Below are positions 1,616 to 42,575 of a stretch of 64,000 bases of DNA, piece by piece. Within the stretch, counting starts at the first letter, position 1; each line of letters starts with the position of its first letter. This stretch comes from an uncultured virus (IMG/VR IMGVR_UViG_3300027278_000424) (lineage: Duplodnaviria; Heunggongvirae; Uroviricota; Caudoviricetes). The notes under the pieces are model-generated. The model saw nothing but the letters and a program-made list of their open reading frames with translations, made no database searches and was not told the origin of the DNA. The stretch lies in IMG/VR virus record IMGVR_UViG_3300027278_000424; one strand, 5' to 3'. The translations under genes and the position numbers were made by a program.

Positions 1616-3187
1616 ATGGAATTAAATACCCTATTAGAAAGCTCGAACCAATATAAAAGTGTTCAAGCTGACGCAGCTAAATTGTCTCAGAAATGGGCTC
1701 AGTCTGGCTTATTAGAAGGTATCAAGGATGAGAGAGTTGCTGGAAACATGGCAATGATCCTTGAGAACCAAGCAAAACAAATCGTAGCTGAGGCTAACTC
1801 AACTAACATTGGTGGAGGATCTTTCTCTGCTGGTGCTGGTGAGCAATGGGCTGGAGTAGCTTTACCTTTAGTACGTAAAGTATTCGCTCAAATCGTAGCA
1901 CAAGACTTCGTATCAGTACAACCAATGAACTTGCCTTCTGGCCTTGTTTTCTATCTAGATTTCAAATACGGAACAGCAACTAACGGTAGAGGTGACGGAG
2001 ATAATATGTACGGTAACGTATCTACAGCTAACTCTAAAATGGGAGTTGACGTAGAAGTAGCTGGTGGTCTTTACGGCGCTGGTCAATTCGGTTACTCAAT
2101 CAACCAAAACACTGCTAACGCTGCAGTAACAGTTTCTGCTGCTACTTCTGCTTCAGTAAACCACGAAGTTGGTGTAAACTTAGCTGCTTTAGAATTAGTT
2201 TCTGTAGCAACAGCATCTTTATCTAGCCCAGACCTAACAGGAGTTAGAGCATTTAGATTATCTTCAGGTTCAGTATTAGCTCAGTACACTCAAGTAGTTG
2301 GAGGAAACATCCAATTCGTATTGGCTTCAGGATCTGTAGGAACAGGTGTTGCTGATGATGTTAAATACCACGTAGCTCCAGCTGATAACGATAGAGGTGA
2401 CTTCGAAGCTGCATCAGGTGCTGCTGTTGATACTTCAATCACTATCCCAGAAATCGACGTTAAACTTGCTTCTGAGGCGATTGTTGCTAAGACTAGAAAG
2501 TTAAAAGCACAATGGACTCCAGAGTTCGCACAAGATCTTAACGCTTACCATTCAATTGATGCAGAAGCTGAATTAACTTCTTTATTATCTGAGTACATCT
2601 CTATGGAGATTGACATGGAAATTTTAGATATGTTGATCGCAGGAGCTGTTACAACTGAGCACTGGTCAGCTGAGAACAACAAAGTATGGGACGGATCTAA
2701 CTGGTCAGTATCTACTTCAGATTTCTACAACACACAAGGACAATGGTTCCAGACTTTAGGAACTAAAATCCAAAAAGTATCTAACAAAATTCACCAGAAA
2801 ACTTTAAGAGGTGGTGCTAACTTCGTAGTAGTATCTCCAACAGTTGCAACTGTATTAGAAAGTATCCCAGGATATGCAGCTAACACAGATGGTGATTCTA
2901 TGGAATTCAACATGGGAGTATCTAAAGTAGGTAGCTTGGCTAACCGCTTCAAAGTATACAAAAACCCATACATGACTGAAAACACAATCCTTATGGGTTA
3001 CAGAGGTTCTCAGTTCTTGGAAACTGGTGCAGTTTATGCTCCTTATGTTCCATTAATGATGACTCCATTAGTATACGATCCAGAAACCTTCACTCCAAGA
3101 AAAGGTTTGATGACTCGTTATGCTAAGAAAATGATTCGTCCAGAATTCTACGGAAAGATTTATGTAAGCGACATCGCTACTATCTAA
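1616..3187 (+). CDS. Major capsid protein (T4 gp23-like)
   Basis: gp23 motifs VSVQPMNLPSGLVFYL, AKTRKLKAQWTPEFAQDLNAYH, YAPYVPL, FTPRKGLMTRY. Confidence 0.97.
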   Translation: MELNTLLESSNQYKSVQADAAKLSQKWAQSGLLEGIKDERVAGNMAMILENQAKQIVAEANSTNIGGGSFSAGAGEQWAGVALPLVRKVFAQIVAQDFVSVQPMNLPSGLVFYLDFKYGTATNGRGDGDNMYGNVSTANSKMGVDVEVAGGLYGAGQFGYSINQNTANAAVTVSAATSASVNHEVGVNLAALELVSVATASLSSPDLTGVRAFRLSSGSVLAQYTQVVGGNIQFVLASGSVGTGVADDVKYHVAPADNDRGDFEAASGAAVDTSITIPEIDVKLASEAIVAKTRKLKAQWTPEFAQDLNAYHSIDAEAELTSLLSEYISMEIDMEILDMLIAGAVTTEHWSAENNKVWDGSNWSVSTSDFYNTQGQWFQTLGTKIQKVSNKIHQKTLRGGANFVVVSPTVATVLESIPGYAANTDGDSMEFNMGVSKVGSLANRFKVYKNPYMTENTILMGYRGSQFLETGAVYAPYVPLMMTPLVYDPETFTPRKGLMTRYAKKMIRPEFYGKIYVSDIATI

Positions 3188-3209
3188 TCTTAGAAATAGA
3201 TTCAATATT

Positions 3210-3236
3210 AAGAGAGGCCTTCGGGCCTCTTTTTTT
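3210..3236 (+). terminator. Intrinsic terminator after the major capsid gene
   Basis: AGAGGCC-TTCG-GGCCTCT hairpin with a cUUCGg tetraloop, followed by a T run. Confidence 0.92.
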
Positions 3237-3311
3237 ATGTTCGAAAAGTACTATTAATATAATAATAGAATTATTTTAGTAGTATTTTACAATAACCTGT
3301 TTTATAAAAGC

Positions 3312-3442: not shown

Positions 3443-3685
3443 ATGATATTACAAGAATTAACCTGGATACAGTTTGTAAATCAAAATCATATTCGTATTT
3501 TAAATGAAAACGAACAGATACGACAGTATCGTTTTTACTTAGATACAGTTGCAAACCAAATAGTAAATCAAAATAAAGGACCGAAACAGCTAAGATTACA
3601 GATAACAGGATTTCTACTTCAAGAAGACTTATTTTTAATACAGCAAGAAAATGGTTCAGGAATTTATATAACAAGCTATGCCTAA
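3443..3685 (+). CDS. Hypothetical protein, possibly a small virion/decoration protein
   Basis: TATTTATA at 3420 upstream; C-terminal FLLQEDLFLIQQENG; overlaps the next start. Confidence 0.6.
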   Translation: MILQELTWIQFVNQNHIRILNENEQIRQYRFYLDTVANQIVNQNKGPKQLRLQITGFLLQEDLFLIQQENGSGIYITSYA

Positions 3686-4262
3686 TCTACCTATATCGCA
3701 ATTACCGCAGTCGACCACTTTACAAGGAGACGAATTATTTGTTAATGTACAGGGAGGTATTACTAAGTACACAACCCTAGATAATGTAACAGGACATCAT
3801 TCAGCCCACCTCTCTACCTATTCTACTCAATCGCAAGCACTTTCAACCTCAGGTTCTATACAGCCCGTAACATTTACAGATGTATGGACTCAAGATAAAA
3901 TAAGTGTAGTAGAGAATACAAAAATTACATTTCAAGAAGCTGGAGTATACCAATTTAACTTTGTAGCTCAAGTATCTAATTCAGATAACGCAGTACATAG
4001 TACCTGGTTTTGGATAAAATACAATGGAAATAATTTTCCAAACTCGACTTCTCTAATTACACTTAAGCCTAGAAAAAGTGCATCTGAGCCTTCAGCACAG
4101 TTAATGACAATGAATATAATCGGCCGTGCACTAAATGATAACGACTTTATTGAATTATACTGGACAGGTAATAGTACTACTATACAGCTAACAGAAACAC
4201 CAGCATTTGGCGAAGTACCTGAAACTCCATCTGTAATAGCTTCAATAAGTAGGGTAGGATAG
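3678..4262 (+). CDS. Putative virion decoration protein with a C1q/BclA-like beta domain
   Basis: N-terminal ISQLP motif typical of phage structural proteins; ITFQEAGVYQFNF...NDFIELYW resembles C1q/TNF-like jelly rolls. Confidence 0.55.
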   Translation: MPNLPISQLPQSTTLQGDELFVNVQGGITKYTTLDNVTGHHSAHLSTYSTQSQALSTSGSIQPVTFTDVWTQDKISVVENTKITFQEAGVYQFNFVAQVSNSDNAVHSTWFWIKYNGNNFPNSTSLITLKPRKSASEPSAQLMTMNIIGRALNDNDFIELYWTGNSTTIQLTETPAFGEVPETPSVIASISRVG

Positions 4263-8518: not shown

Positions 8519-10579
8519 ATGGCATTAATACAGTGGAAACAGATAAATCCTGAACTTTTAGGAAATGGCCGACTTACAGGTTCACTAGAAGTATCAGGAT
8601 CCATAATACTTAACGGAGTAAACCTTTCAGCAGCACAAGGAGGCGGTGGAGGAGTACTTCCTAGTGGAGTAGTATCTGGTTCCAAACAAATAGAAGCACA
8701 AGGATTTGCTTATAGCTCTTCAGTTGATGCTTTACAAGCTTCTATTACTTCTTTAATACTAAGTAGCTCTACTTATTTAACAAGTATAAGCGGATCAAAT
8801 ATACAAGATCTTGCTAATGTAGACATAACTAATATAGTTAACGGTCAAATACTTGCTTATAATTCTCAAACAGGTTTATTTGAACCAACCTCTGCCGGTC
8901 AAGGAGATATTACAGCAGTATATTCTGGAGTTGGACTAAATGGAGGAGGAACCTCAGGAGTAGTAGCTTTAGAAGTTACACCCGGTAATGGAATTATTGC
9001 AAATAATCAAGGAGTACATTTAGATACAGGATCTGCACACTTTATAGCAGGGGTTAACACCCATATTAACATTTTATCAGCATCTATTGCTACACAGCTA
9101 TCAAATATAATTCATACAGATATTTCTGCATTAGACCTATTTACTAGTTCAGCAGATGTAAGAATATCTTCATTAGAAACTTTTTCTGCATCATTAGATA
9201 CATCTTTTGTAACAGAAGTAGAATTAAAATTAGCAACAGCATCATTATCATCCTCTACAGCACAAGCTAACCTAGATTTATCTGGATCTGCACATATTCA
9301 AAGATTAGCACTAAGTAGTTCATTAAAGGACTATACAGATGCTAAATTTGCATCATTAGTAGATGGAGCACCAGAATTACTAGATACATTAAATGAATTA
9401 GCAGCAGCAATTGGAGATGATCAAAATATTTCTTCATCGTTAGTTACTTCTATAGCAGATAAAGCTAGTAATGCAGAACTATCCAACGTTTCTGCTTCTT
9501 TAGCAGCAACAATAAGCTCCATACCTAAAGGTATTGACTATGTTTCTGGATCGAATACTACATTACTTTCACAAATAGAGGTATTAGATTACGATAATAA
9601 CGTAGCAACAGTTTTTCAAGATGGAAAACTTAAATTTATATTTGGAGAACCAGCTTTACCTACGTCTTTAAATGCAAGTATAGGTGGATTTAGTACTGAT
9701 AGATTTAATAAGCAATTAGATAGCTATTCGGTTAACGCTTCTTGGAGTAACGGAGGGTATACGCTCATTTCTGCTTCATTATATGAAGGTTCTACATTAC
9801 TTACTAAGGTAGGGACAGGAACATCTCTTAGCTTTGATCAAAACACAAGCGGATCACATTCATATACCTTATACTATACAGCAAGTTCACCATTAGACGG
9901 AAATATACATACCAACACAGATTATATTTCTGGAAACTTAAGTAAATCACAACCTACTTCTCCTTCTATTAGTTCAACCGCTACAGTAGAGTTAGGAGCT
10001 AGTTCAAATCAGATAGAACAAGGTGCAGTAGGAAATATATCTTTTACATCAGCGTATGGAAGTGCAAACGGATGGACAGAAGTATCATTAGTAGATACTC
10101 CAAACACCTCTCCATTTACAGTATCAAGAGATTCTTCCTTAGAAACAATAACAACAGTAGCCAACTATGAATCTCCAATAGGTTCAAATGATCCACAAAT
10201 CACTACGTCAAGAACTACTAGTACAAACTACAGTAAAATAAGAAGTCTTCGTTTTGGAGCTTCGGCTGCAGTTAGTTTCACACAAGCTGAATTAGAAACC
10301 CTATCAAACTGGGATACTACTTTAGGAGGAGGAATTGGTACTATCAATAAAGGTACAACTAACCCAAATGGACAAAGTGTAACTATTGTCTGGAGTGGTG
10401 ATAAGTACCATTATATAGTTTTTGACAGTTCAAGAAGTAACCTTAGTAACATAACCACAAGTGGGTTTGGAGTATTAGGTTCGTTCTCAGTTACAACAGT
10501 CGGAGATTATAAAATTTATAAGTCTAACACTTTACAAGCTGGAGGAGCTAGTAGCAGTATAACTTATAACTTAACTTAG
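8519..10579 (+). CDS. Fibre/structural protein
   Basis: S/T/G-rich; GDITAV..G.GL.GGGTSG motif; fibre motif GAPELLDTLNELAAAIGDD; beta-rich C-terminal half. Confidence 0.7.
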   Translation: MALIQWKQINPELLGNGRLTGSLEVSGSIILNGVNLSAAQGGGGGVLPSGVVSGSKQIEAQGFAYSSSVDALQASITSLILSSSTYLTSISGSNIQDLANVDITNIVNGQILAYNSQTGLFEPTSAGQGDITAVYSGVGLNGGGTSGVVALEVTPGNGIIANNQGVHLDTGSAHFIAGVNTHINILSASIATQLSNIIHTDISALDLFTSSADVRISSLETFSASLDTSFVTEVELKLATASLSSSTAQANLDLSGSAHIQRLALSSSLKDYTDAKFASLVDGAPELLDTLNELAAAIGDDQNISSSLVTSIADKASNAELSNVSASLAATISSIPKGIDYVSGSNTTLLSQIEVLDYDNNVATVFQDGKLKFIFGEPALPTSLNASIGGFSTDRFNKQLDSYSVNASWSNGGYTLISASLYEGSTLLTKVGTGTSLSFDQNTSGSHSYTLYYTASSPLDGNIHTNTDYISGNLSKSQPTSPSISSTATVELGASSNQIEQGAVGNISFTSAYGSANGWTEVSLVDTPNTSPFTVSRDSSLETITTVANYESPIGSNDPQITTSRTTSTNYSKIRSLRFGASAAVSFTQAELETLSNWDTTLGGGIGTINKGTTNPNGQSVTIVWSGDKYHYIVFDSSRSNLSNITTSGFGVLGSFSVTTVGDYKIYKSNTLQAGGASSSITYNLT

Positions 10580-10586
10580 AGCATAT

Positions 10587-11171
10587 ATGGCAATTATAAT
10601 ACCTGGTGGATTTAACATAACTAACAACGATCCTGTTGATGCAAGGATAACCGTTGCGGATCAAACTGCACGTTTATCATTCTCAATAGCGAACGTATAT
10701 GAAGGTTTAGTTGTATTCCAGAGAGATACAAACCAGTTATATGTATTAACCGATTCTCTTAACCCTGGAGACAATATTAGCTGGGCATTAATCTCTGCAG
10801 CACAAGAAGGAGCAGCTCTAGCAGGTATAGCAGCAGGAAACGGATTGACAGGAGGTGGATCTTCTGGAAATGTTAACGTATCATTAGATACAGGTTCAAA
10901 CCATTTTATCACAGGAGTAATAGATCTTAACATATTTCAGGATATGGGATCGTATTACTCAACTACAAATGAATTACAAGTCACAGGATCTTTAACTCTA
11001 AGGAAAGATGAATCTGGAGACGCTTTATCCATATATAATGGAGATACAAAAACGTTTGGAATATCAAACGAAGGTATCATATTAATGGCTACACAGTCTG
11101 CCACACCGACTGTACAAAAAGGAGGGATGTACTTAGATGAGAATTACAACCTTTTTATAGGTCAGGAATAA
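10587..11171 (+). CDS. Fibre-associated structural protein
   Basis: PVDAR...YEGLVVF...LYVL N-terminal domain; AGNGLTGGGSSGNV..LDTGS.HF shared with the upstream protein. Confidence 0.6.
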   Translation: MAIIIPGGFNITNNDPVDARITVADQTARLSFSIANVYEGLVVFQRDTNQLYVLTDSLNPGDNISWALISAAQEGAALAGIAAGNGLTGGGSSGNVNVSLDTGSNHFITGVIDLNIFQDMGSYYSTTNELQVTGSLTLRKDESGDALSIYNGDTKTFGISNEGIILMATQSATPTVQKGGMYLDENYNLFIGQE

Positions 11172-11220
11172 CATTTTAACTATATTTATTAATAAGCATT
11201 AACTTAAAAACTCGAATAAC

Positions 11221-17145: not shown

Positions 17146-17157
17146 TAAGTTAATACA

Positions 17158-17361
17158 ATGCTAAAAAGGTTTTTTAAAATGGGAATAAATAGAACAGACA
17201 ATACCCCAAATAAGATTGATAATCCGGCCTCCATTAATGAAAAGGAGGCTGGGTTCATCATCGCTAAAATGAGACAAGCAACTTACCAAGGTACAGAGTT
17301 TGAAACATTCTACCAAGTTATTTCAAAACTACAAAAAATAGTTGAAAATAAATCAAAATAA
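17158..17361 (+). CDS. Small hypothetical protein, possible fibre chaperone (start may be the ATG at 17179)
   Basis: Short helical ORF immediately after the giant fibre and before a terminator. Confidence 0.6.
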   Translation: MLKRFFKMGINRTDNTPNKIDNPASINEKEAGFIIAKMRQATYQGTEFETFYQVISKLQKIVENKSK

Positions 17362-17365
17362 AATT

Positions 17366-17385
17366 AGGCCTTCGGGCCTTTTTTT
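17366..17385 (+). terminator. Intrinsic terminator
   Basis: AGGCC-TTCG-GGCCT followed by a T run; same core as the terminator at 3210. Confidence 0.9.
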
Positions 17386-17426
17386 ATTATCTTTTAATAA
17401 GAAGTCTAACTATTTATTGTAAAGAT

Positions 17427-31785: not shown

Positions 31786-31787
31786 GC

Positions 31788-33125
31788 ATGAAAATTAAAC
31801 CAGAAGAAGGTAATAAGACGTTTTGTATAGCACCATGGACACACACCTACCTCTCTCCTCAGAGTGAGAGGAGGATGTGCTGTGCATCTAGGGAAAAAGC
31901 TTCCTGGGCAACACAGTATTTAGACTCAGATGCAGCAGACGGAACTTCTTCTTATAAACCCGGTACTCTCAAAGAACATTGGAACTCTGAATATATGAAA
32001 GGAGTGAGACGAGACCTTATGGCAGGTAAGGTTATACCTCAATGTTCGGTATGTAATGAACAACTACTAAATATATCTGTTTATAGAGATTATTTTAATA
32101 AATCTTTATTCCCTAATAAAATTGAGGAAGCATTTAGTAAAACAGATGAAACAGGCTTTACAACTATGCCTCCTATATCTTTTGATTACAGGGTAAGAAA
32201 CCTTTGTAATTTTAAATGCAGAATGTGCGGAGATCAACTTTCATCTTCATGGGAAGCAGAGAGAAGAGCAATGGGCGATTACGATAGAGAAGGAAATGGT
32301 GACCATTGGGCTAAAAAAGAAAATAAACCAGTTATTGAAAACTTTCAAAAAGATGTAGCAGAAGCTGAACTTTGGGAAGCTGTGAAGAATGGTACTATAG
32401 AGGAAATATACTGGGTAGGAGGAGAACCTTTAATGTGGGAAGTACACTGGGAAGTAATGGAATATTTAGTTAATAATGATTTAGCTAAAAACGTATGGGT
32501 GCGTTACAATACTAATTTTAGTAGAACGACTTATAAACACTGGGACCTAAAAAACCTACTTCCCCACTTTAAAATGGTTCAAATCTGTGCTTCCATAGAC
32601 GGAACTGGAAAAAATGTTGAATACGTAAGACATGGTATTAAGTGGGATCAATGGATACATAATTTTAAAGAATATTTATTTCTTAATCAAAAATATGGAC
32701 AATACGGTATTGCATTTGACCTTACTATAACCACCCCAGGTCTTTTCAGCCTAAAGAGTTTATTTGATTTAGCAGTTGAACTAGATGTCAACACCCTGAT
32801 TAAAACAACATTTGCATTTGACGGGAGTGTTACTATGTGTCCCCAAGTACTACCTAGAGAACTCTTTAACGAAGTTATTGATGATATATTAGACTACATA
32901 AGACCTAAAGTAGAAGTAAACCCAAAACATGCTAATTGGATAGAATGTCTTGAAGATTTAAAAAACAGAGAGACATTTGAAGAAAAGTACCCTGATTGGA
33001 AGGAGGCCTTAGTTAGAGGTAAACAAAATTTGACTAGAGTAGATAAGTGGAGAAAAAACGAAAATACTCTAGAAGAAATCTATTCGGAAAACCCTAAAGT
33101 ATTAAACTGGTGGAGAAACATATAG
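31788..33125 (+). CDS. Radical SAM enzyme with N-terminal twitch domain (3)
   Basis: CNFKCRMC, GGEP, SIDG; N-terminal CIAPW..MCC..CSVC. Confidence 0.9.
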   Translation: MKIKPEEGNKTFCIAPWTHTYLSPQSERRMCCASREKASWATQYLDSDAADGTSSYKPGTLKEHWNSEYMKGVRRDLMAGKVIPQCSVCNEQLLNISVYRDYFNKSLFPNKIEEAFSKTDETGFTTMPPISFDYRVRNLCNFKCRMCGDQLSSSWEAERRAMGDYDREGNGDHWAKKENKPVIENFQKDVAEAELWEAVKNGTIEEIYWVGGEPLMWEVHWEVMEYLVNNDLAKNVWVRYNTNFSRTTYKHWDLKNLLPHFKMVQICASIDGTGKNVEYVRHGIKWDQWIHNFKEYLFLNQKYGQYGIAFDLTITTPGLFSLKSLFDLAVELDVNTLIKTTFAFDGSVTMCPQVLPRELFNEVIDDILDYIRPKVEVNPKHANWIECLEDLKNRETFEEKYPDWKEALVRGKQNLTRVDKWRKNENTLEEIYSENPKVLNWWRNI

Positions 33126-34333
33126 AAAGTAGTAAAAAGAGTAAGTCTATATGTGCACTACCGTGGCTACATTTAGCTACACATCCTATAGGTACTATTA
33201 CACCTTGCTGTATTACCGATATGAAAGATAGTGCTTCTACAGCAGCTACAGATCATGATGAAGCTCAGCACTTATTTCTTAGCAAAGATTCGCTTGATTC
33301 AATAGCTAATTCAAAAAAGTTTAAAAAGCTACGTAAAGACATGATGAACGGAGAATTCTCCTCTTTATGTCAGAAATGTTACAAATACGAAGCTGCAGGT
33401 GTAGAATCTAAAAGGGAAGTTTCTAATAGGGAGTATGGGAAATACTTAGAAGAGTATATAAAAAACACTGATTCTACAGGACACATAAAAGATATAAATT
33501 ATAGATACATAGAACTAAGACTAGGCTCAGTATGCAACTTGAAATGTGTCACATGTAACCCTTTTTCTTCAAACAGGTGGAACCAAGATATACATGTGTT
33601 TAAGGGTACTGAGTTTGAAAAAGAATATTTTAAAAACGAGATAAAAACAGAGTGGTATAGAGATTACGGATTTTACGATAACCTTCTCGATAAGTGTAAG
33701 GACTTACAGGAAATTTGGATAAATGGAGGAGAGCCTACCTTAATTAAAGAACATGGGTACTTCTTACAAAAGCTTATAGATAATAACCAAGCAAAGGATA
33801 TTAAAATTAGTTACAGTTTAAACAGTACAAAATTCCCGGACAGTTTTTTAGAGATATGGAAAAAATTTAAAAAGGTAAAGATACAAATCTCCATAGATGA
33901 TATTGAAGATAGAAACCACTATGTACGATATCCATCAGACTGGAATACAATAATGACTGCTTTTACAAAAATTGCTAAATATAAAGATGTATTTGAGTTA
34001 GAGATATGCCAGACTGTTAGTGCTTTAAATGTTCATAATTTAAGTAACTTTAAAAACTTTTTTAAAGAATTCGGATTACTTTTTTCTCACAACTACGTAC
34101 ATTATCCATCTCATTTACAGGTTTCGATCTTACCAGAAGAATTAAAACAACAGGTTTTAGAAAATAATTCAGATTTAACAGAGATGGAAATAGATAGACT
34201 AAAATCTGAACTATATAAATCAGCTAGTCCAAAAGAATTAGATAAATTTAAATCCTATATTAATTTACTTGATAGAGCAAGAAATTTAAAAATACAAAAT
34301 TACCTACCTGAGTGGGAACCTTATTTTAAATAA
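33110..34333 (+). CDS. Radical SAM enzyme with N-terminal twitch domain (4)
   Basis: CNLKCVTC, GGEP; N-terminal CALPW..PCC..CQKC. Confidence 0.9.
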   Translation: MEKHIESSKKSKSICALPWLHLATHPIGTITPCCITDMKDSASTAATDHDEAQHLFLSKDSLDSIANSKKFKKLRKDMMNGEFSSLCQKCYKYEAAGVESKREVSNREYGKYLEEYIKNTDSTGHIKDINYRYIELRLGSVCNLKCVTCNPFSSNRWNQDIHVFKGTEFEKEYFKNEIKTEWYRDYGFYDNLLDKCKDLQEIWINGGEPTLIKEHGYFLQKLIDNNQAKDIKISYSLNSTKFPDSFLEIWKKFKKVKIQISIDDIEDRNHYVRYPSDWNTIMTAFTKIAKYKDVFELEICQTVSALNVHNLSNFKNFFKEFGLLFSHNYVHYPSHLQVSILPEELKQQVLENNSDLTEMEIDRLKSELYKSASPKELDKFKSYINLLDRARNLKIQNYLPEWEPYFK

Positions 34334-34339
34334 AGAATT

Positions 34340-35602
34340 ATGAAAGACAGTAAAACATTATGCACAGCTCCGTGGATGCACTTACACATAATTAACGATG
34401 GAAGAGCATATCCTTGCTGTATGACTGAAATTACTAACGAATTAGCAGTAGGTAATGTTAAAACTCAGACACTAAAGGAAGTAGTAAACAGCCCTAAGAT
34501 GAAAGAAATGAGAAAGGGAATGCTTGAAGGTAAACCTCTCCCAGCTTCCTGTGAAAGATGTAAAGGAAGGGAAGATGCTGGATTTAGTTCAATGAGAATA
34601 GGCATGAACAATAATTGGTACGATAAAGTAAAAGACCTAATAGAAAATACAAAACCAGACGGAGAAGTAACAAATTTAAGACTTCTATATTGGGACATAA
34701 GATTTTCTAACTACTGTAATCTAGCTTGTAGAACCTGTTCTCCTACATTTTCAACTTCTTGGGCAAATGATTATATAAGATTAAGAGACCATAATGATAA
34801 TATTGAAACCGGTCTAATAAATTTAGATAATGAAACTAATTTCTGGAATGAGTTAGATGCCAATCTAGATGTAGCCCAAGAGATACACTTCGCCGGAGGA
34901 GAGCCCGTATTAATGCCGGAACATTGGAAGCTTATTAGCTTCTTAGAAGAGAACCAGAGGTTTGATACAAAATTAAAATATTCCACCAATGCTACAAAAT
35001 TAGTAGTTAAAGGTAGAAATATTATTGATGTATGGAAAAAATTTAAAAATGTACATTTAAGTCTATCTATAGACGGAACAGGCGATGTATTCGAACTTAC
35101 AAGACATAAAGGCAATTGGGAATCTACTAGAAATAATTTAATTGAGATTTCTAATAGCAATATAGAGTACTGGATACATCCTACCGTTAGTATATTAAAC
35201 ATTTTTAATATAGTAGAACTACATAAAGAGCTATTTGATTTAAATATTATTCCAAATGAAATAAGAGAATGTGAAGTAGGAAAATCCGGATATAATAGTA
35301 ATGATTACTTTATTAAAAGATTTCACATCAACCCTTGTGTGACCCCAGATATTTATTCAATAACCAATATACCTGAAAATCTAAAAGCAATAGCTACACA
35401 GAAAATTAGAGAATACGCCAATACAAGTCTAAAAGAAAACGGGATACCGGTATCGGGTTGGGAATCGTTAATTAGTATTATGAATAGCCAACCATGTGAT
35501 ATGGAAGTATTCAGGAGATTTGTAGAGACTACTAAGAAATTAGACAAAATGAGAAATCAAAATTTTGTTGAAACGGTTCCTGAATTTAAACCTTATTTTT
35601 AA
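34340..35602 (+). CDS. Radical SAM enzyme with N-terminal twitch domain (5)
   Basis: CNLACRTC, GGEP, SIDG; N-terminal CTAPW..PCC..CERC. Confidence 0.9.
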   Translation: MKDSKTLCTAPWMHLHIINDGRAYPCCMTEITNELAVGNVKTQTLKEVVNSPKMKEMRKGMLEGKPLPASCERCKGREDAGFSSMRIGMNNNWYDKVKDLIENTKPDGEVTNLRLLYWDIRFSNYCNLACRTCSPTFSTSWANDYIRLRDHNDNIETGLINLDNETNFWNELDANLDVAQEIHFAGGEPVLMPEHWKLISFLEENQRFDTKLKYSTNATKLVVKGRNIIDVWKKFKNVHLSLSIDGTGDVFELTRHKGNWESTRNNLIEISNSNIEYWIHPTVSILNIFNIVELHKELFDLNIIPNEIRECEVGKSGYNSNDYFIKRFHINPCVTPDIYSITNIPENLKAIATQKIREYANTSLKENGIPVSGWESLISIMNSQPCDMEVFRRFVETTKKLDKMRNQNFVETVPEFKPYF

Positions 35603-35603
35603 T

Positions 35604-36542
35604 ATGCACTACCTTTACGACTACTTATGGGAATCTCCAACTGAATTTGGAGTTAGAAATCTTTTAAGAAGAAACCACCTAGCTTATTACACAGATGAAA
35701 TAATAAAAAACTGTAATAAAACAGACCCAGGAGAGGTGTACAGTGTAAGGTACTTAGATGAGGAAGAAGAGGCTGAAACCCTTGCAGCTATTAGTAAAAA
35801 TACAACAGACCTAAAAGAAGGAGATGTATGTTATAACCTTGACCGTTTTGGACTAAGACATACAGGGGTGAACATACTTGAAGATGAAGTCGATACTTTA
35901 GTATTTGGATGTTCTTTTACATACGGAGTAGGAGTGCCATTGGAAAAAACATGGGCCTATAGTGTTAACACCCAAATTTTAGACAACCGATACATTAACC
36001 TAGCTATACCGGGAAGCTCAATTTCTAAAATTACAAGACTTTTATATAGTATAGCTCAATTTAAAAAGCCAAAAAGAATTATTATACTGCTACCGGATTA
36101 CAACCGGGAAGAAATAATTACCGAAAAAGATAGTAACGCAAGTAAAAAAGTACGTAATAATTTTGAAACTATAAATTTTGTCCCTAGGTATCTACCTGAA
36201 AACCAAGAGGTAATGTACCATATTAAGAGGTACATGAACACACTAGTTACGGAAAATAACAAAGTCAATACATACAAAAATCTACAAATTATTAAGTTTC
36301 TCACAGACCAGCTGAACATAAAGTTATACATCTCCAGCTGGTGCCCTTGGACTTACTCAACTTTAGAAAAAGTATTTGACACAACTCAAATAGCACCATA
36401 TTTTGAATTTAAAAATGATGCAAAAGATAACCTATATGCTAGAGATGGAGGACATCCAGGTTTGGTAGATAATAAAGAGTTTGCGAACGACTTACTAAAG
36501 TTTATAACTAATAAAGAAAAGGTACACCACAATGTCATTTAA
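35604..36542 (+). CDS. SGNH/GDSL-like hydrolase or acyltransferase
   Basis: FGCSFTYG (block I), NLAIPGSS (block II), DGGHP (block V); ATG at 35604 follows the previous stop. Confidence 0.72.
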   Translation: MHYLYDYLWESPTEFGVRNLLRRNHLAYYTDEIIKNCNKTDPGEVYSVRYLDEEEEAETLAAISKNTTDLKEGDVCYNLDRFGLRHTGVNILEDEVDTLVFGCSFTYGVGVPLEKTWAYSVNTQILDNRYINLAIPGSSISKITRLLYSIAQFKKPKRIIILLPDYNREEIITEKDSNASKKVRNNFETINFVPRYLPENQEVMYHIKRYMNTLVTENNKVNTYKNLQIIKFLTDQLNIKLYISSWCPWTYSTLEKVFDTTQIAPYFEFKNDAKDNLYARDGGHPGLVDNKEFANDLLKFITNKEKVHHNVI

Positions 36543-37836
36543 TCATTACTTAGAAATAAACTATAACCAAGCTATAAATTTCGGTTTTGATAAATTAAAT
36601 ACTAAACCAGACATCGGGTTTGTACACGGTAGTCCGATACTTGAAACTCTAGTCTTTAAAGAAAGCACATCGTACTTTATAGAAACTGGTAAAAAATTTA
36701 TATACCCAATCTCAGGATTAAGTGAAACTATGTATATCTCTCCTGCTTTTTTATTAGAAAGCAATGTTATTGAAGCATGCAAGAATGGCCTGTGTAAAGT
36801 AGGTATAATGTACGATACAGAAGGAACAACATATCAGGACCGGTACCTTTTTTGGCTAGAAGAATTTGCAGAGTTAAATGAATTAGATGAAACTAACTTT
36901 TTTTTCGCACATGGGAATAGACAGTTAATACAAACCTATAGAGATTTTTTAATAAAGAAAAGAGAATTAAATCCTACGTTAGAAGTAAAACCTAAAGTTG
37001 AGATTTTAAAATACTCTTATTTTGAAAATTTTCCTTGGTTTATTCCCGGTGATTATAAATTAAGAAAATCAAAAACTAAAGAGCAATTATTAGAGCACTT
37101 CAATAAAATATTAACCAGGAACAGGGAAGAACAAAAAGTAAAGCATTTTTTATGTTTGAACAGAAGACCGAGACTAGGTAGAGTATTAATATTTGGAGCT
37201 ATTGAAACTAACCCTTATTTAAGAGATAAGACTATACTAACAATGGGTCCTCATGAACTTCCTGAGGGAACAGAGTTTCGACCGTTAAAAGCAATAGAAA
37301 GGAAATATATCCCATCTTGGATATATGATTATGTAGACTCATACGACTTTGAAAAACCCATACATGTAATAGATAATCCAGATAATAGTAATAAAGCACA
37401 TGATATAAATCTTGAGTTTCACCAAAGTACATTTTTAAACGTTGTTACAGAAACACTATACAATAAAGAGATAATGTTTCTTTCGGAAAAAATATTTAAA
37501 CCAATGTATATGCTACAACCTTTTGTAGTGATTGGAAATCCTAATACTTTAAAAGAACTTAAGCAACTTGGGTATAAAACTTTTGATAGATGGTGGGATG
37601 AAAGTTACGATGAAGAAGAGGACTTGGTACAAAGAGTGTTAAAAGTAGAAATAATTTTAAATAAACTAAGTAAGTTAAGCTTTGAAGAACTCTACAAAAT
37701 TACTCAAGAAATGGAAGAAACATTAATACATAACTTTAACAGATTTCTATTTGAAAGTAAACAAGAAACATTAGATTATTTAAATTTTCTAACTTTTCAA
37801 CAATATTTTGAAAAACTACCTCCATATCAATATTAA
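36532..37836 (+). CDS. Putative GT-B glycosyltransferase-like protein
   Basis: FLCLNRRPR, LNVVTET, FLSEKIFKP, PFVVIG, WWDESYD; resembles a GT10-like nucleotide-sugar-binding C-domain. Confidence 0.6.
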   Translation: MSFNHYLEINYNQAINFGFDKLNTKPDIGFVHGSPILETLVFKESTSYFIETGKKFIYPISGLSETMYISPAFLLESNVIEACKNGLCKVGIMYDTEGTTYQDRYLFWLEEFAELNELDETNFFFAHGNRQLIQTYRDFLIKKRELNPTLEVKPKVEILKYSYFENFPWFIPGDYKLRKSKTKEQLLEHFNKILTRNREEQKVKHFLCLNRRPRLGRVLIFGAIETNPYLRDKTILTMGPHELPEGTEFRPLKAIERKYIPSWIYDYVDSYDFEKPIHVIDNPDNSNKAHDINLEFHQSTFLNVVTETLYNKEIMFLSEKIFKPMYMLQPFVVIGNPNTLKELKQLGYKTFDRWWDESYDEEEDLVQRVLKVEIILNKLSKLSFEELYKITQEMEETLIHNFNRFLFESKQETLDYLNFLTFQQYFEKLPPYQY

Positions 37837-38666
37837 TGAAAAGCAACCTTATAACCTTTGGATGTAGTTATACTAAATTTGATTGGCCAACTTGGGCAGA
37901 TTTTCTTAGTTCATATTACAGCACATATACAAATTATGGAAAAGCAGGATCAGGAAACAGAGCGATTTTTCATAAAATTATTAAATACCTAGATTCAAAA
38001 GAAAATTTTACACAAGATCAAGTTATAATTCAGTGGAGCAGCTGCGCTAGAGAAGACAAATACGATAAACATTCTAACCAGGAATATCTTTGCGCAGGAA
38101 ATATTACTAATAATCCTTTCTATACCAAAGAATATGTAGATAAGTACTTTTCATTTCAACAAGACTTAGTAGAAACGGTAAATTACATAAAAACGGTAAA
38201 AGACCTACTTGAATATCATAACATTAAGTACTTAATGACTTTTATGTTAGATTTAAGGATAGGCACACATTTAGGAGAGCCGGGATTCAACAGTAACTTT
38301 GAATACTTAACTGAGATAGAGTTAAATAAATGTAAACCTATATTTAAAAAACTTGACTATTTAGTTGATAATAATTTTACCGATTTATGTATTACTATGC
38401 ACCAATTAGACTGCAGTGATAAAGTATACTGCTTCTCCCCTAAAGGAGAGGTAAACCCAGACTCTCACCCTAGTCCAAATCAGCATTACAGTTTCATGGA
38501 GAAGTATTTACTCCCTAAACTAAAATACATACAGCAGAAAGAAACCCCGGTATCTATCAGTCTATTAAAAGACTGGAATAATTTTGCTAAAATTAAAAAA
38601 AATTTAGAAGATAAGTTAGAGTATAAACCTTCAACCTGGCCTACTAAAACTACAATGAACTTTTAA
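37836..38666 (+). CDS. Second SGNH/GDSL-like hydrolase or acyltransferase
   Basis: FGCSYT, NYGKAGSGN, IIQWS, DSHP. Confidence 0.72.
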   Translation: MKSNLITFGCSYTKFDWPTWADFLSSYYSTYTNYGKAGSGNRAIFHKIIKYLDSKENFTQDQVIIQWSSCAREDKYDKHSNQEYLCAGNITNNPFYTKEYVDKYFSFQQDLVETVNYIKTVKDLLEYHNIKYLMTFMLDLRIGTHLGEPGFNSNFEYLTEIELNKCKPIFKKLDYLVDNNFTDLCITMHQLDCSDKVYCFSPKGEVNPDSHPSPNQHYSFMEKYLLPKLKYIQQKETPVSISLLKDWNNFAKIKKNLEDKLEYKPSTWPTKTTMNF

Positions 38667-38700
38667 CAGTGCTCTATTTATAAAAATAATAAATGTTAGT

Positions 38701-39864
38701 ATGAAAATAGGCTTTATAGGAGTTGGAAAACTCGGAAAAGATGCTGCCGAAGTAATGGCAGAAAAACACGACGTTATAGGTTACGATGTAACAAAAGTTG
38801 AACCGGAAAACTTTAATATGGTAGAAACCATAGGAGAAGTTTGTAAAGGTAGAGAAATGATATTTATAGCGGTTCCAACACCTCACGATCCTGCCTATGA
38901 TGGTAGGTATCCAACAGCACATTTACCAAACAAAGACTTTAACTACCAGATTGTAAAAGACGTACTTACTGAAACAAACAAGTATGTTACAAAAGATCAA
39001 TTAGTAGTTTTAATCTCAACTGTACTACCAGGAACAATTAGAAGAGAGTTTATAGATTTAATTCCTAACGGAAGATTTATCTACAATCCTTATTTAATTG
39101 CAATGGGTACAGTTAAATGGGATATGGTTAATCCTGAGATGGTTATTATTGGAACTGAAGACGGTTCAATGACCGGAGATGCTAAGATGTTACTCGATTT
39201 TTACAAAACGTTTATCACAGAAGGTACACGGTATGAAGTAGGAACTTGGGATGAAGCAGAAGGTATTAAAATATTTTACAATACATTTATTTCTACAAAA
39301 GTAACTTTAGTTAACATGATACAAGATGTTGCCGAAAAAGGAGGTAATATGAATGTAGACGTAGTAACAGGAGCATTAGAAAGATCCACATACCGTATAC
39401 TCGGTAAAGCTTATATGACAGCAGGTATGGGAGATGGAGGAGGATGCCACCCAAGGGACAATATCGCCTTACGTCATATGGCAGAAAAGTTAGGTTTAGG
39501 GTATGATTTATTTGATGCAATAATGAATGCTAGAGAGAAACAAGCTAAAAATCTTGCAGAGACTTTAGTTAAACACGCTCAAGAAAATTCCCTACCTATA
39601 ACAATACTCGGTAAATCTTATAAACCGGATGTACACTACGAAGACGGTTCTACAACTATACTAACAGGTTATTTCTGTGAAGAATTAGGAATAAAACCTG
39701 AATTTGATTTAGAAGTTCCAAATAAGGCAGTTTATTTATTAGGACATATGGGTAAATTTCATGAATACCGGTTTCCTGAAGGCTCTATAGTTATCGATCC
39801 ATGGAGAGCATATAAATCAGATAAAGTTAAAGTAATACATTACGGAAACACCCGACTGGGATGA
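38701..39864 (+). CDS. ugd: UDP-glucose/GDP-mannose 6-dehydrogenase family
   Basis: GFIGVGKLG Rossmann motif, IAVPTP, STVLPGT, K..YN, catalytic GGGCHPRD; TATTTATA at 38675 upstream. Confidence 0.9.
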   Translation: MKIGFIGVGKLGKDAAEVMAEKHDVIGYDVTKVEPENFNMVETIGEVCKGREMIFIAVPTPHDPAYDGRYPTAHLPNKDFNYQIVKDVLTETNKYVTKDQLVVLISTVLPGTIRREFIDLIPNGRFIYNPYLIAMGTVKWDMVNPEMVIIGTEDGSMTGDAKMLLDFYKTFITEGTRYEVGTWDEAEGIKIFYNTFISTKVTLVNMIQDVAEKGGNMNVDVVTGALERSTYRILGKAYMTAGMGDGGGCHPRDNIALRHMAEKLGLGYDLFDAIMNAREKQAKNLAETLVKHAQENSLPITILGKSYKPDVHYEDGSTTILTGYFCEELGIKPEFDLEVPNKAVYLLGHMGKFHEYRFPEGSIVIDPWRAYKSDKVKVIHYGNTRLG

Positions 39865-40505
39865 AAGCAGTAATACTTTCAGGATATTTAGAAAACCTAT
39901 CAGACAATATTAAATCCGTTTTAGATCTTAAAACAGATATGTTTGTACATACCTGGAAAACCAAAGAGAATGAAAGATGGGTAAAAAAGCTACAGAGGTA
40001 TAATAAATTTTGTAACTCAATTAATATTATTGAAGAAGAACCTAAATTCGAAAAAAAATTATATTCTTATGTATATTCAACTTGGCGAGCTGTAAACTTG
40101 ATCACAGAAATTGAACAGTATACATCTATTTTAAAATTCAAACCTAATCTAGATACATATAACATAGAGTATAAAGGAAACTTAGAATTTTACTTTCAAA
40201 AAGCTTCTATACAATCTAGACCATTACTACAGGGGATTAAAAAAGAAGAATGTTTTTACGGGTCAATTTACTACCAAACTATGGATGAAAGAATGTTCTC
40301 TGGGTATCCGTTGGGATTTAGGAAAGTATTTCATACATTGTATAAAGAGTTTCACCTAAATATGGTTAACTTAGACAACCAATTATCTTTAAAGTACGGT
40401 AATGACTACGAAGGTAGTATTTTTTGGAAGGAGTGGTTTGAGAGTAAAGGAATAAAACTAATACAAGATTTAGATTTAAAAATACCTAATAACAGACAGT
40501 TATGA
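39861..40505 (+). CDS. Hypothetical protein, possibly a glycosyltransferase
   Basis: KAVILSG...DMFVHTW N-terminus like phage/capsule GT-like proteins; coupled to ugd. Confidence 0.45.
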   Translation: MKAVILSGYLENLSDNIKSVLDLKTDMFVHTWKTKENERWVKKLQRYNKFCNSINIIEEEPKFEKKLYSYVYSTWRAVNLITEIEQYTSILKFKPNLDTYNIEYKGNLEFYFQKASIQSRPLLQGIKKEECFYGSIYYQTMDERMFSGYPLGFRKVFHTLYKEFHLNMVNLDNQLSLKYGNDYEGSIFWKEWFESKGIKLIQDLDLKIPNNRQL

Positions 40506-40744
40506 AATTAACACAAGAAGAGTTACAGACAATTAAAGAAGTTCAACAACGTCATGCTGCAATTAAAGAAGAATTGAGTTCAATTGGACAAATTAAACTT
40601 AATTTAAAGATGAGGCAATATAAGCTTGAAACTTTTTACTCCCAAACGATTGAAATGGAGCAAAAAACAGCAGCCGATATACAAGCTAAATACGGGAAAG
40701 GTAATATTGATATAGAAAGTGGAGAATTTACTCCCATTCCGTAG
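40502..40744 (+). CDS. Small coiled-coil hypothetical protein
   Basis: KLTQEELQTI...KYGKGNIDIESGEF; immediately upstream of the sheath gene. Confidence 0.7.
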   Translation: MKLTQEELQTIKEVQQRHAAIKEELSSIGQIKLNLKMRQYKLETFYSQTIEMEQKTAADIQAKYGKGNIDIESGEFTPIP

Positions 40745-40859
40745 GAAGGTTTAATAACTTTTAGTCTATTTATATACGTAGTTAAATACCGTTTGCTTAC
40801 CAACAGGTTTAGATATTCTACATATATTTATAATAGACACAAAATAAATTTTACCTAAC

Positions 40860-42575
40860 ATGGCAGAAACAATAATCTCACCAGGTGTATTTCAAAGAGA
40901 GAATGATATTTCATTCATCCAACCCGCACCAGTAGAGGCAGGAGCAGCAATCCTTGGACCAACAGTAAAAGGACCGGTTGAGATTCCTACAATCGTTACT
41001 TCTTATAACGACTATACAAGAAAGTTTGGAGTAACATTTGAATCAGGATCAGATAAACATGAGTTCTTAACTTCAATGGCTGTAAAAAGCTATTTTGATC
41101 AGGGAGGAAATACTTGTTTAGTAACAAGAGTAGTAAGCGGTTCTTATACAGCAGCAACTTCTACAGACATCACAGATGTATCAGGATCTGGAACTTCACC
41201 TTTTGAACTAGAAACTTTAGGTAAAGGTGTTATCTACAACAACCATTCAGGATCAACTTACGGTGAACAAAACTCAGACGGCTCTTTAGTATCCGGTTCT
41301 TCTGATAACTTAAGATTTGAAATCTCAAATGTAGACAGTACAAGAGGTACTTTTGCTTTAGCTGTAAGAAGAGGAGATGATAATACTAAAAATAAAGTAG
41401 TATTAGAATCATTCGTAAACTTATCATTGGATCCTAACTCTCCGAATTATATTGAGAAAGTTATCGGTAACCAAGTTAAAGCAATCTCAGGAGATGCTTC
41501 ACAAGTAACCGTAACAGGAGATTATGTTAATAAGTCTAACTTTATTAGAGTATCAGCAGTTAACTCTCCAACACTCAACTACTTAGAAAACGACGGAGTT
41601 ACTGTAAGAAGTAATTACGCAGATTTACTTCCTATCGCACAGCAAGGAGGATTCCAAGCAGCTACAGGAGATGTAAAAGGAGGAGCGTTACTCTACAATA
41701 ACATTTCTACTCAAACTCAAGGTTTAGAAGGAGGTAACTACGATAACGTTATTACATTATTAGGAAATGCAGATGATTACCAGTTCAATGTTATCTCTGC
41801 ACCTGGTTTAGTTAACGCTTTACACGGTACACAAGTGGATAATCTTATCTCTCTTGTAGAATCTAGAGGAGATAGTATAGCAGTAGTAGATTTAGTAGCT
41901 TACGGGTCTACAGTAGCAAATGCAGCAACAGAGGCAGCTGATCAAAACAGCTCATATGCAGCATCTTACTGGCCATGGTTACAAACTCAATCTTCTACAG
42001 GTAAAAATGTATGGGTACCAGCTTCAGTTGTTATCCCAGGAATTTACGCTTTCACTGATGGAGCAGCAGCACCATGGTTCGCACCAGCAGGTCTTGTACG
42101 AGGAGGAATCGTTGGAGTAATTCAAGCAGAAAGAAAGTTATCTAGAACAGATAGAGATACTTTATATAACGGTAAAGTTAACCCAATCGCTACTTTCCCT
42201 GGAACAGGTTTAGCAGTATTTGGACAGAAAACTTTACAAACTAAAGCTTCTGCTTTAGATAGAGTAAACGTTAGAAGATTATTAATCGACCTTAAGAAGT
42301 TTATTGGTGATCAAGCACAAAACTTAGTATTTGAACAAAATACTATTACAACAAGAAATAAATTCTTATCTACAGTTAATCCTTACTTAGAATCAGTAAC
42401 ACAAAGACAAGGTCTTTATGCTTATAGAGTAGTAATGGATGATACAAACAACACAGCAGATGTTATTGATAGAAACCAATTAGTTGGTCAGATCTTTATA
42501 CAGCCAGCTAAAACAGCAGAATTTATAGTATTAGACTTCGTAGTAGAACCAACAGGAGCTTCTTTCGCAGGATAA
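40860..42575 (+). CDS. Tail sheath protein (gp18-like)
   Basis: ISPGVF.RE.D, GPTVKGP, PWFAPAG..RG, VNPIATFP, GQKTL, DRVNVRRL, PAKTAEFI. Confidence 0.96.
   Translation: MAETIISPGVFQRENDISFIQPAPVEAGAAILGPTVKGPVEIPTIVTSYNDYTRKFGVTFESGSDKHEFLTSMAVKSYFDQGGNTCLVTRVVSGSYTAATSTDITDVSGSGTSPFELETLGKGVIYNNHSGSTYGEQNSDGSLVSGSSDNLRFEISNVDSTRGTFALAVRRGDDNTKNKVVLESFVNLSLDPNSPNYIEKVIGNQVKAISGDASQVTVTGDYVNKSNFIRVSAVNSPTLNYLENDGVTVRSNYADLLPIAQQGGFQAATGDVKGGALLYNNISTQTQGLEGGNYDNVITLLGNADDYQFNVISAPGLVNALHGTQVDNLISLVESRGDSIAVVDLVAYGSTVANAATEAADQNSSYAASYWPWLQTQSSTGKNVWVPASVVIPGIYAFTDGAAAPWFAPAGLVRGGIVGVIQAERKLSRTDRDTLYNGKVNPIATFPGTGLAVFGQKTLQTKASALDRVNVRRLLIDLKKFIGDQAQNLVFEQNTITTRNKFLSTVNPYLESVTQRQGLYAYRVVMDDTNNTADVIDRNQLVGQIFIQPAKTAEFIVLDFVVEPTGASFAG

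Follow-up and report, generated by a model that had tools for sequence, protein, structure and literature searches.

A directional [Ser/Thr]-[Gly/Ala]-Ser word in the outer virion proteins of an uncultured T4-like phage and its clade

In Gram-positive bacteria, GtfA and GtfB, an adjacent pair of cytoplasmic GT-B glycosyltransferases (GTs) of ~500 and 440 amino acids (aa), O-glycosylate Ser in the S-[A/V/E]-S type repeats of serine-rich-repeat adhesins. Chloroviruses glycosylate their capsid with soluble GTs of their own and attach N-linked glycans to Asn residues in atypical sites. Two-residue beta-hairpins favor Gly followed by Ser, Thr, or Asn, with a preference for the type II′ turn. For mycobacteriophages Che8 and Rita, phage-encoded GTs are reported to O-glycosylate the major capsid proteins and to form a glycan shield (PMC11256854). 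Marine T4-like myophages carry a hypervariable “host recognition cluster” in the tail-fiber region with GTs, radical S-adenosylmethionine (SAM) cassettes, and UDP-glucose 6-dehydrogenase, and its GTs are read there as modifiers of the host O-chain that block co-infection (PMC7029224). Here, we analyze a 64,000-nucleotide (nt) stretch of an uncultured virus (IMG/VR record IMGVR_UViG_3300027278_000424), called the window below, which comes from a T4-like phage and whose virion proteins carry a recurring tripeptide of the form [ST]-[GAS]-S. The nearest isolate is Flavobacterium phage vB_FspM_immuto (immuto), with capsid and sheath 69% and 67% identical to those of the window. Our literature searches found no paper describing this tripeptide motif and no proteomic data.

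An earlier note, made from the window alone, had proposed that the tripeptide is the acceptor of modifying enzymes encoded in an adjacent island of sugar and radical SAM genes. We find that the motif is a real, clade-specific idiom, hydrophobic-[Ser/Thr]-[Gly/Ala]-Ser-hydrophobic, placed where a strand gives way to a turn or loop in the probably outward-facing variable domains of the capsid, neck, sheath, and fibers. The distribution of the genes indicates that the adjacent island is not its cause.

Enrichment in the window and across the clade

All of the strings listed for the window are present. They comprise 13 of 13 pentapeptides in the capsid (TSASV at aa 177, ATASL at 198, SSGSV at 216, and ASGSV at 237), neck (VTGST at 14, YSGSI at 126, and ITGSI at 150), sheath (ESGSD at 61, VSGSY at 92, VSGSG at 107, HSGST at 129, and VSGSS at 144), and open reading frame (ORF) 3678 (TSGSI at 57; this ORF also has KSASE at 133), as well as five of five fiber strings (LTGSFTGSF, LSGSAH in 4 copies, LSSSA in 12 copies, LSASI, and VTASY). 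Compared with 1000 within-protein shuffles, the broad motif [ST][GAS]S was found 84 times versus 59.6 expected in the 4 fibers (1.41x), 26 times versus 16.5 in 20 non-fiber virion proteins (1.58x, p=0.019), and 12 times versus 11.5 in the 36 other proteins of the window (1.05x). Enrichment over composition is therefore present in the virion sets at a modest level (1.4-1.6x), but the reversed pattern S[GAS][ST] was about as enriched as the forward one (fibers 1.48x, non-fiber virion proteins 1.34x). For single proteins, the counts were 4 versus 1.95 in the capsid (p=0.14), 3 versus 0.66 in the neck (p=0.025), and 5 versus 2.03 in the sheath (p=0.042). The rarity of the motif in enzymes, noticed earlier by eye, holds as a count; since the enzyme counts match the shuffles, it reflects composition, with less Ser in these proteins, and not avoidance.

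Outside the fibers, [ST]AS and [ST]SS showed no enrichment in the window, and the signal is carried by [ST]GS, with 36 versus 10.3 expected in the four fiber proteins, 14 versus 5.4 in the non-fiber virion proteins, and 2 versus 3.8 in the others. (Among the small ORFs between the fiber genes, the one at 10587-11171 holds 2 [ST]GS and was tallied with the non-fiber virion set.) SGS by itself ranked 6th of 3362 tripeptides in the non-fiber virion proteins (9 versus 2.6, Poisson p=1.6e-3), a significance that is lost after multiple testing over these 3362. A DNA-level motif was ruled out by comparing reading frames: the pattern encoding [ST]GS occurred 14 times in frame but only 1 and 2 times in the other sense frames of the non-fiber virion genes, and 36 times versus 0 and 0 in the fibers. 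The signal thus sits at the protein level, not in the DNA.

The window by itself would leave room for the view that nothing is there beyond Ser/Gly/Ala composition and picking by eye, given the 1.4-1.6x enrichment, the nearly equal reverse pattern, and SGS being one of several tripeptides at p ~1e-3. The relatives make this view very improbable. From 80 IMG/VR loci with a sheath homologue, we kept the 76 with a sheath ORF of >500 aa, and in these SGS was counted 246 times versus 36.6 expected and [ST]GS 334 times versus 73.0. In a second sample of 80 capsid loci, which covered the capsid, neck, PhoH, and head-completion families, [ST]GS reached 95 versus 40.0 in the capsid family (n=68), 169 versus 23.3 in the neck family (n=69), and 5 versus 2.2 in the PhoH family (n=45); for the two small head-completion ORFs, the counts were 0 versus 5.4 (6464 family, n=68) and 14 versus 12.4 (7234 family, n=63). 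We also counted the alignment columns in which one tripeptide reaches 10% of the sequences. In the sheath family, no other tripeptide had as many such columns as SGS (5) and TGS (4); in the neck family, TGS, GSS, and SGS were on top, and in the capsid family SAS (5). Composition alone would not be expected to give this lead of SGS and TGS in the sheath and their place in the top three of the neck.

Direction was assessed with 150 representative sheaths that share 35-69% identity with the query and <=50% with each other. Here, SGS occurred 437 times versus 81.5 expected, whereas its permutations GSS and SSG occurred 79 and 101 times; TGS reached 188 versus 75.2, with 84-117 for its other five permutations; SAS reached 190 versus 78.6, with 105 for ASS and 94 for SSA; and TAS reached 136 versus 73.3. 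Thus, SGS, TGS, SAS, and TAS are 2-5x enriched in the outer virion proteins of the clade, and same-composition permutations are not. The same holds at the scale of genomes. In the virion blocks of immuto (51 ORFs), [ST][GA]S was found 161 times versus 58.4 expected, without enrichment of the permutations, compared to 19 versus 29.8 in its 163 other ORFs. In the virion blocks (42 ORFs) of G002, a relative of 155 kb that is 95% complete, the count was 175 versus 47.0, and TGS was seen 49 times versus 6-14 for its five permutations. By protein class, the capsid, sheath, fibers, and outer baseplate are enriched, while the tube, hub, tape-measure-like, and portal proteins of the same genomes showed no enrichment of the motif. 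The counts do not point consistently to avoidance of the word by non-virion proteins: 7 versus 7.3 in the window, the deficit just given for immuto, and 31 versus 23.3 in G002, whose “other” set was drawn by position only and probably includes unrecognized virion proteins.

Control phages set the limits of the phenomenon. A general T4-like virion property is ruled out by T4 itself (25 virion proteins including the long tail fibers, 14 [ST][GA]S versus 23.3 expected) and by Syn9 (12 structural proteins, 21 versus 17.2), and a trait of Bacteroidota phages at large is ruled out by the Bacteroides phage crAss001 (19 virion-module proteins, 10 versus 13.2). We note that the T4 virion proteins fall below composition, with TGS at 0 versus 3.9 in the first 21 of them, which may be chance. 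Three phages that, with immuto, are the nearest relatives of the window capsid gave 16 versus 14.5 (LR756508, 37 ORFs around capsid and sheath), 21 versus 15.7 (Mel-JY01, 19 proteins, where capsid, neck, and sheath together hold 15 of the 21), and 13 versus 7.8 (RM378, 11 large ORFs). Taken together, these data show that the enrichment is real, directional, and specific to one T4-like clade, and is not a feature of phages or Bacteroidota phages generally. Once the word is sharpened to hydrophobic-[ST]-[GA]-S, the window by itself gives a weak signal and the clade a strong one.

Within the clade, one lineage (G004, L013, and L090) is motif-poor in several proteins jointly. In G004, the closest long relative of the window phage (ribonucleotide reductase 92% and capsid 83% identical), the counts were 0 versus 1.5 in the capsid, 1 versus 1.7 in the sheath, and 1 versus 0.6 in the neck, while two ORFs at the end of its contig stay motif-rich (7 versus 1.3 and 3 versus 1.6); its three Ser-rich ORFs showed no alternative motif. 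Members of this lineage have neither the fibers nor the island between neck and sheath, and they retain the GT pair described below. Over 61 loci, the motif counts of capsid and neck were weakly correlated (Spearman 0.21, p=0.10).

Position, flanks, and modeled structure of the sites

The sites fall in variable parts of their proteins. All four capsid sites lie within a variable insertion region, aa 123-278, over which T4 gp23 does not align (it aligns to the window capsid only at 35-122 and 279-503). Across 69 capsids, S[GA]S is semi-conserved at two of these columns. The neck family has semi-conserved [ST]GS columns at window positions 16, 56, 91, 128, and 152. In the sheath, the columns at window positions 63, 94, and 146 hold [ST]GS in 48, 40, and 60 of 77 sequences; columns 255 (32/77) and 263 (61/77) hold it as well, and there the window sheath is without the word. 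Sheath homologues insert up to ~1100 extra residues near aa 100-115, adjoining the motif cluster at 62-147.

In the fibers, the contexts of the sites recur as homologous modules (PAGvvSGS.Q, GGHvVSGS, L.[ST]GSAH, LTGSFTGSF.GDG, and SLSGSSAAAL). The giant fiber of 1974 aa contains arrays of an 18-aa (54-nt) tandem unit, TLQGNID.EA.AR..AD, and a fixed SL-SGS-S(A/H) module stands 25 residues past the last unit of several arrays. The earlier description of the word as interrupting the fiber repeats is accurate in that SGS modules sit between the 18-aa arrays, but these are duplicated units and not independent gains. Convergent acquisition in unrelated proteins is likewise right in part only: the fiber copies are duplicated modules, and a number of sites in the capsid, neck, and sheath sit at semi-conserved columns that were inherited. 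The window copies are thus partly inherited and partly the product of fiber-module duplication. In G002 (49746-53075, L171/L172), a 1109-aa homologue of ORF 3678 with 27% identity holds 58 [ST][GA]S versus 7.9 expected; most belong to x-[st]gs-hydrophobic repeats spaced at 6-12 residues.

At conserved columns, the center of the word alternates between Gly and Ala while the flanking Ser are kept. Sheath column 62 has SGS in 47 and SAS in 21 of 77 sequences, and capsid column 281 has SGS in 24 and SAS in 16 of 69; Ala at the center is found in 21/77 (sheath column 62), 18/77 (sheath column 503), and 23/69 (capsid column 281). Position 1 accepts Ser or Thr, and position 3 is nearly always Ser (75 Ser and 0 Thr, 69 and 8, and 62 and 1 at the conserved columns). 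The following residue is hydrophobic, as with Phe in 77/77 at sheath column 511 and Leu in 71/77 at column 503. When the sites of three genomes are pooled, the residue at −1 is hydrophobic in 56-76% and that at +1 in 40-64%, compared to a background of 29-33%, and the flanks of permuted tripeptides are at background level.

We examined the placement of the sites in AlphaFold2 (AF2) models. The sheath model (mean predicted local distance difference test [pLDDT] 87.2) matches the KP1 sheath (VIA-align Z 38.5) and T4 gp18 (Z 28.0), and all five of its sites are in turn or loop segments between strands; site 62-64 is modeled as a two-residue hairpin turn joining strands 59-62 and 65-68. Taken as a whole, the capsid model is poor (pLDDT 45.7), and only residues 161-250 are usable (block means 74-92). 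In this part, four of four sites come directly after a beta-strand (164-175, 192-198, 214-215, and 231-237), and the two Ala-centered sites are short helical turns. Altogether, nine of nine modeled sites fall in a turn, loop, or short helical turn, seven start <=2 residues from the end of a strand or bridge, and one is a two-residue hairpin. A Gly-dependent two-residue beta-turn does not describe the word, as the central Gly is not required and Ala is common at sheath columns 62 and 503 and capsid column 281. From the placement in variable domains together with T4 domain maps, we infer that the sites are exposed on the outer surface of the particle. The suggestion of a recognition-type word on the exposed virion surface would agree with this modeled placement of the sheath and capsid sites, in turns and loops of domains that are outer and variable, and also with the clade-level enrichment over composition and permutations.

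Our preferred reading, held tentatively, is that the word is a strand-capping, turn-forming, hydrophilic surface element for which no modification would be needed. A beta-strand would end at the word and a turn or loop would begin there, so that the word caps the strand; the two hydroxyls would point toward solvent, and the tiny central residue and the hydrophobic neighbors would pack inward. We favor it because of the location in turns, the hydrophobic flanks, the inherited columns, the duplication of modules in the fibers, the independence from an island that matches a known host recognition cluster (see below), and the existence of motif-poor relatives that keep the GT pair. Several observations weigh on the other side. 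The orthologous T4 proteins do without the word, as do Syn9 and crAss001; Gly and Ala swap freely while both flanking Ser stay; Thr is rare at position 3; forward order alone is enriched; and the lineage of G004 has few copies in its capsid, sheath, and neck alike. This structural reading stands only narrowly ahead of one in which the word is a sequon. In favor of the latter are the directionality of the word, its Ser specificity, and its tolerance for Gly or Ala, together with its lack in T4 orthologues and its loss throughout one lineage.

Candidate enzymes in and outside the window

The earlier proposal was that the tripeptide is the acceptor of the enzymes of the window's island, namely the GT7-LamG, GT2, and five radical SAM proteins and the UDP-glucose dehydrogenase (UGDH). 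The island encodes a DUF6734 protein, a methyltransferase, a GT2-like protein, two GT7+LamG proteins, five N-terminal-twitch radical SAM proteins, UGDH, and unassigned ORFs. The GT7+LamG fusions (25512 and 26816) lie upstream of the five radical SAM paralogues, which are in tandem at window 28225-35602. Each of the five exceeds the curated 170-bit cutoff of NF033640 over the full model length (ORF 28225, 341.8 bits; 30163, 312.5; 31788, 312.8; 33110, 346.2; and 34340, 370.9). The position of the island between the fiber and sheath genes, its GTs and nucleotide-sugar dehydrogenase, and the scarcity of the motif in the island enzymes themselves are in keeping with the proposal.

The distribution of the island in relatives points the other way. 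G001, a 104-kb virus record near-identical to the window phage (63% complete), has 5 NF033640 copies above the cutoff and G005 has 2, compared to 0 in G002 to G004. None of the 17 island ORFs (22875 to 40505) has a homologue in immuto, and the same is true of ORFs 53622, 54142, and 62415. No N-terminal-twitch radical SAM protein was found in G002, where the sole trace of the island is a methyltransferase homologue at 25% identity, or in G003; G004 lacks this family too and has no island at the locus occupied in the window. The motif nevertheless persists without the island in immuto (161 versus 58.4) and G002 (175 versus 47.0). At ten island-bearing loci, the sheath has 4, 5, 3, 3, 2, 1, 1, 4, 4, and 4 SGS, and at six loci where the neck genes immediately precede the sheath, with no island in between (L013, L037, L041, L058, L059, and L078), it has 0, 3, 5, 4, 3, and 5. 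Conversely, L014 and L015 have 8 island homologues each directly upstream of the sheath, and their sheaths are motif-poor (2 versus 1.6), so the expected co-occurrence with the island across phages did not appear. Because immuto and G002 are enriched without the island and L014 and L015 are motif-poor with it, the motif is independent of the island, and we consider it highly improbable that the island enzymes are its writers.

Relatives with sheaths 56-92% identical have the island in full, in part, or not at all at the same locus; the island is a swappable cassette of the hypervariable tail-fiber region. It resembles the host recognition cluster of marine myophages in its place, in its GT, radical SAM, and UGDH content, and in its variation among close relatives; the account of that cluster mentions no virion motif and no five tandem N-terminal-twitch radical SAM paralogues such as those of the window island (PMC7029224). 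We also rejected two further candidates from the window. Of all window genes, the GT60-like gene at 62415 alone belongs to a family with known action on proteins, and it looks like a sporadic transfer: it is shared with 4 of 50,697 phage records, all of them unrelated Xanthomonas or Stenotrophomonas jumbo phages (44-50% identity), and is absent from immuto, which excludes it as a clade-wide writer. Proteoglycan-type xylosylation at Ser-Gly, an analogy prompted by GT7 and UGDH, is a misfit to Thr at position 1 and Ala at the center, and the motif can do without the island.

A second set of enzymes lies outside the window. Immuto and G002 share a syntenic cluster headed by two Glycos_transf_1 (GT-B) proteins of 483 and 438 aa, 54-55% identical, with variable sugar genes after them. 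The pair was found in six of six long clade genomes examined (immuto, G002, G003, G004, G005, and G006); it is not in the window, nor in G001, which ends before the syntenic region. In 50,697 phage records, the 483-aa member occurs 9 times: in 4 immuto records, in Mel-JY01, LR756508, and RM378, and in two of Tetrasphaera phage TJE1 (23% identity). Its best match of solved structure is the chlorovirus glycosyltransferase B736L (3oy2, E=7.6e-8), over residues 217-344 in the C-terminal GT-B half. The pair is not GtfA/GtfB: an NCBIfam scan at E<=1 gave generic GT4 only (best TIGR04047, E=3e-5 and 8e-4), and no GtfA or GtfB structure was among its PDB sequence matches. Immuto had been considered as a GT-free control and was rejected as such, since a GT cluster of its own lies at 49-60 kb. 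GT2 genes are present in all five long relatives tested; hence, no GT-free member of the clade was found. Within the G002 cluster, we noted an ORF of the Acb1-like (anti-CBASS, where CBASS is the cyclic-oligonucleotide-based antiphage signaling system)/2′-5′ RNA ligase superfamily (L174:6662-7210).

In the sequon reading, the word would be an O-glycosylation or other Ser-directed sequon, read by a soluble phage enzyme shared across the clade, most plausibly the GT-B pair, with cassettes such as the island supplying or elaborating the sugar. We regard this as possible, if somewhat less probable than the structural element. It would account for a word that is directional, Ser-specific at position 3, and tolerant of Gly or Ala in the middle, that is restricted to outer virion proteins with unrelated folds and not enriched in tube, hub, tape-measure-like, and portal proteins, and that belongs to one clade. 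The presence of the pair in immuto and G002 to G006, the restriction of its 483-aa member mostly to the nearest capsid relatives, and the match to B736L are in line with it, and the GTs reported to glycosylate the virions of Che8 and Rita provide a precedent (PMC11256854). In the available text on immuto, nucleoside analysis of the DNA gave only fdPreQ1 in place of deoxyguanosine, and glycosylation is unmentioned (bioRxiv 10.1101/2023.04.13.536721); as far as that text goes, DNA is thus not an obvious target of the immuto GT cluster.

Other findings fit the sequon less well. Neither the window nor the incomplete G001 contains the pair. It is intact in G004 despite the motif-poor capsid, sheath, and neck of that phage, and has a 31% homologue in LR756508, whose capsid and sheaths are without enrichment. 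Mel-JY01 is enriched in capsid, neck, and sheath only, the capsid and neck counts are weakly correlated, and the pair has no GtfA/GtfB membership in NCBIfam. In addition, all positive cases come from one clade, so the association of the pair with the motif counts as one evolutionary event. By its distribution, the GT-B pair is a better candidate writer than the island, yet it is also present in motif-poor relatives. The sequence-level features that suggest a sequon would equally suit a docking or recognition word for a non-sugar partner, such as a decoration or assembly protein, a kinase, or a host surface ligand, as none of them is specific to sugar. The many unrelated folds and the fiber repeats are hard to square with a single protein-protein interface, and we consider docking quite unlikely.

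In its fullest form, the sequon reading would have the clade, meaning immuto-like aquatic T4-like phages with sheath representatives down to 35% identity, tag exposed turns of its capsid, neck, sheath, and fiber proteins with a Ser-specific O-glycosylation sequon, hydrophobic-[S/T]-[G/A]-S. The shared GT-B pair would read the sequon and the swappable cassettes would build strain-specific sugars, giving a variable glycan coat comparable to bacterial O-antigen variation. We put this forward as a doubtful combination.

Gene context and comparison with known systems

The features discussed above are collected in Table 1; all genes of the window are on the + strand.

Table 1. Genes and motif sites of the window, with the glycosyltransferase pair of its relatives
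Feature	Position	Strand	Basis or remark
Major capsid protein, gp23 family, 523 aa	1616..3187	+	PF07068 E=1.5e-81; 69% identity to the immuto major capsid protein
Capsid motif cluster: SAS 178-180, TAS 199-201, SGS 217-219, SGS 238-240	2147..2335	+	
ORF 3678, 194 aa, weak BclA_C-like C-terminal domain	3678..4262	+	PF18573 E=5e-4, under family cutoff
PhoH gene	between ORF 3678 and neck gene in map order	+	gene map
Neck / head-tail adaptor, gp13-like, 380 aa	5023..6165	+	phrog_211 E=7.6e-15
Neck motif sites: TGS 15-17, SGS 127-129, TGS 151-153	nt 5065-5481	+	
Fiber block, four fiber proteins (giant fiber is the second)	8519..21550: 8519-10579, 11221-17145, 17486-18640, 18704-21550	+	PHROG tail-fiber matches
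Sugar/radical SAM island, ~18 kb, variable	22875..40744	+	Pfam and NF033640
Tail sheath, 571 aa	40860..42575	+	PF04984, PF17482; AF2 pLDDT 87.2
Sheath motif cluster: five SGS, aa 62-64, 93-95, 108-110, 130-132, 145-147	41043..41300	+	
Tube, hub, baseplate with gp5-like lysozyme, then replication genes	downstream of sheath	+	gene map
GT60-like polypeptide GlcNAc-transferase family gene	62415..63917	+	PF11397 E=7.6e-78; outside the range of the earlier note
GT-B pair	L174:3890-6669 = G002 103890-106669; immuto 49172-51927 (immuto26A_90/91)		heads variable sugar cassette

Farther downstream, the family A DNA polymerase ORF of the window (51803-53128) encodes 441 aa only, and the immuto annotation has two separate PolA genes (1-1326 and 37898-40231); the polymerase appears to be split over distant loci in the immuto clade. 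At window 53622-55041, an insertion separates the PolA-linked genes from the single-stranded DNA-binding protein gene; it encodes a 188-aa fragment of a short-chain dehydrogenase/reductase and a radical SAM/SPASM protein of 299 aa, neither of which has a homologue in immuto.

For the original claim, the key result is negative, in that the motif does not depend on the adjacent island. If the sequon were true, it would constitute a short, defined acceptor motif for phage virion glycosylation over an abundant aquatic clade, and it would explain the large, fast-changing sugar islands that adjoin the fiber genes. It would also bear on host range, on the stability and stickiness of particles in seawater, and on the annotation of virion proteins from metagenomes. 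The question is directly testable because the clade has a cultured member, vB_FspM_immuto, which grows on Flavobacterium sp. LMO8. A purely structural idiom would still be a usable marker of outward-facing virion proteins in the clade.

Each of the known systems resembles the word in one respect and departs from it in another. The type II′ turn of two-residue hairpins is approached by sheath site 62-64, modeled as strand-G-S-strand, and by the start of most sites within two residues of a strand end. In contrast to that turn, Ala stands in the place of Gly at conserved columns in roughly a quarter to 40% of the sequences, the last Ser is rarely replaced by Thr or Asn, and T4 orthologues lack the word. 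With Che8 and Rita, the clade shares the possession of GT genes, and the motif lies on capsid and tail surfaces that are probably exposed, where a glycan is putative; those phages are siphoviruses and the present ones myoviruses, with hosts and enzymes that are unrelated as far as tested. The phage GT-B pair matches neither the GtfA nor the GtfB family and lies outside the window, but an adjacent pair of closely similar sizes together with an S-[G/A]-S word recalls the GtfA/GtfB arrangement. Finally, the chloroviruses likewise encode soluble GTs of their own, and B736L is the best solved relative of the 483-aa enzyme, although it matches only the C-terminal half and chlorovirus glycans are N-linked.

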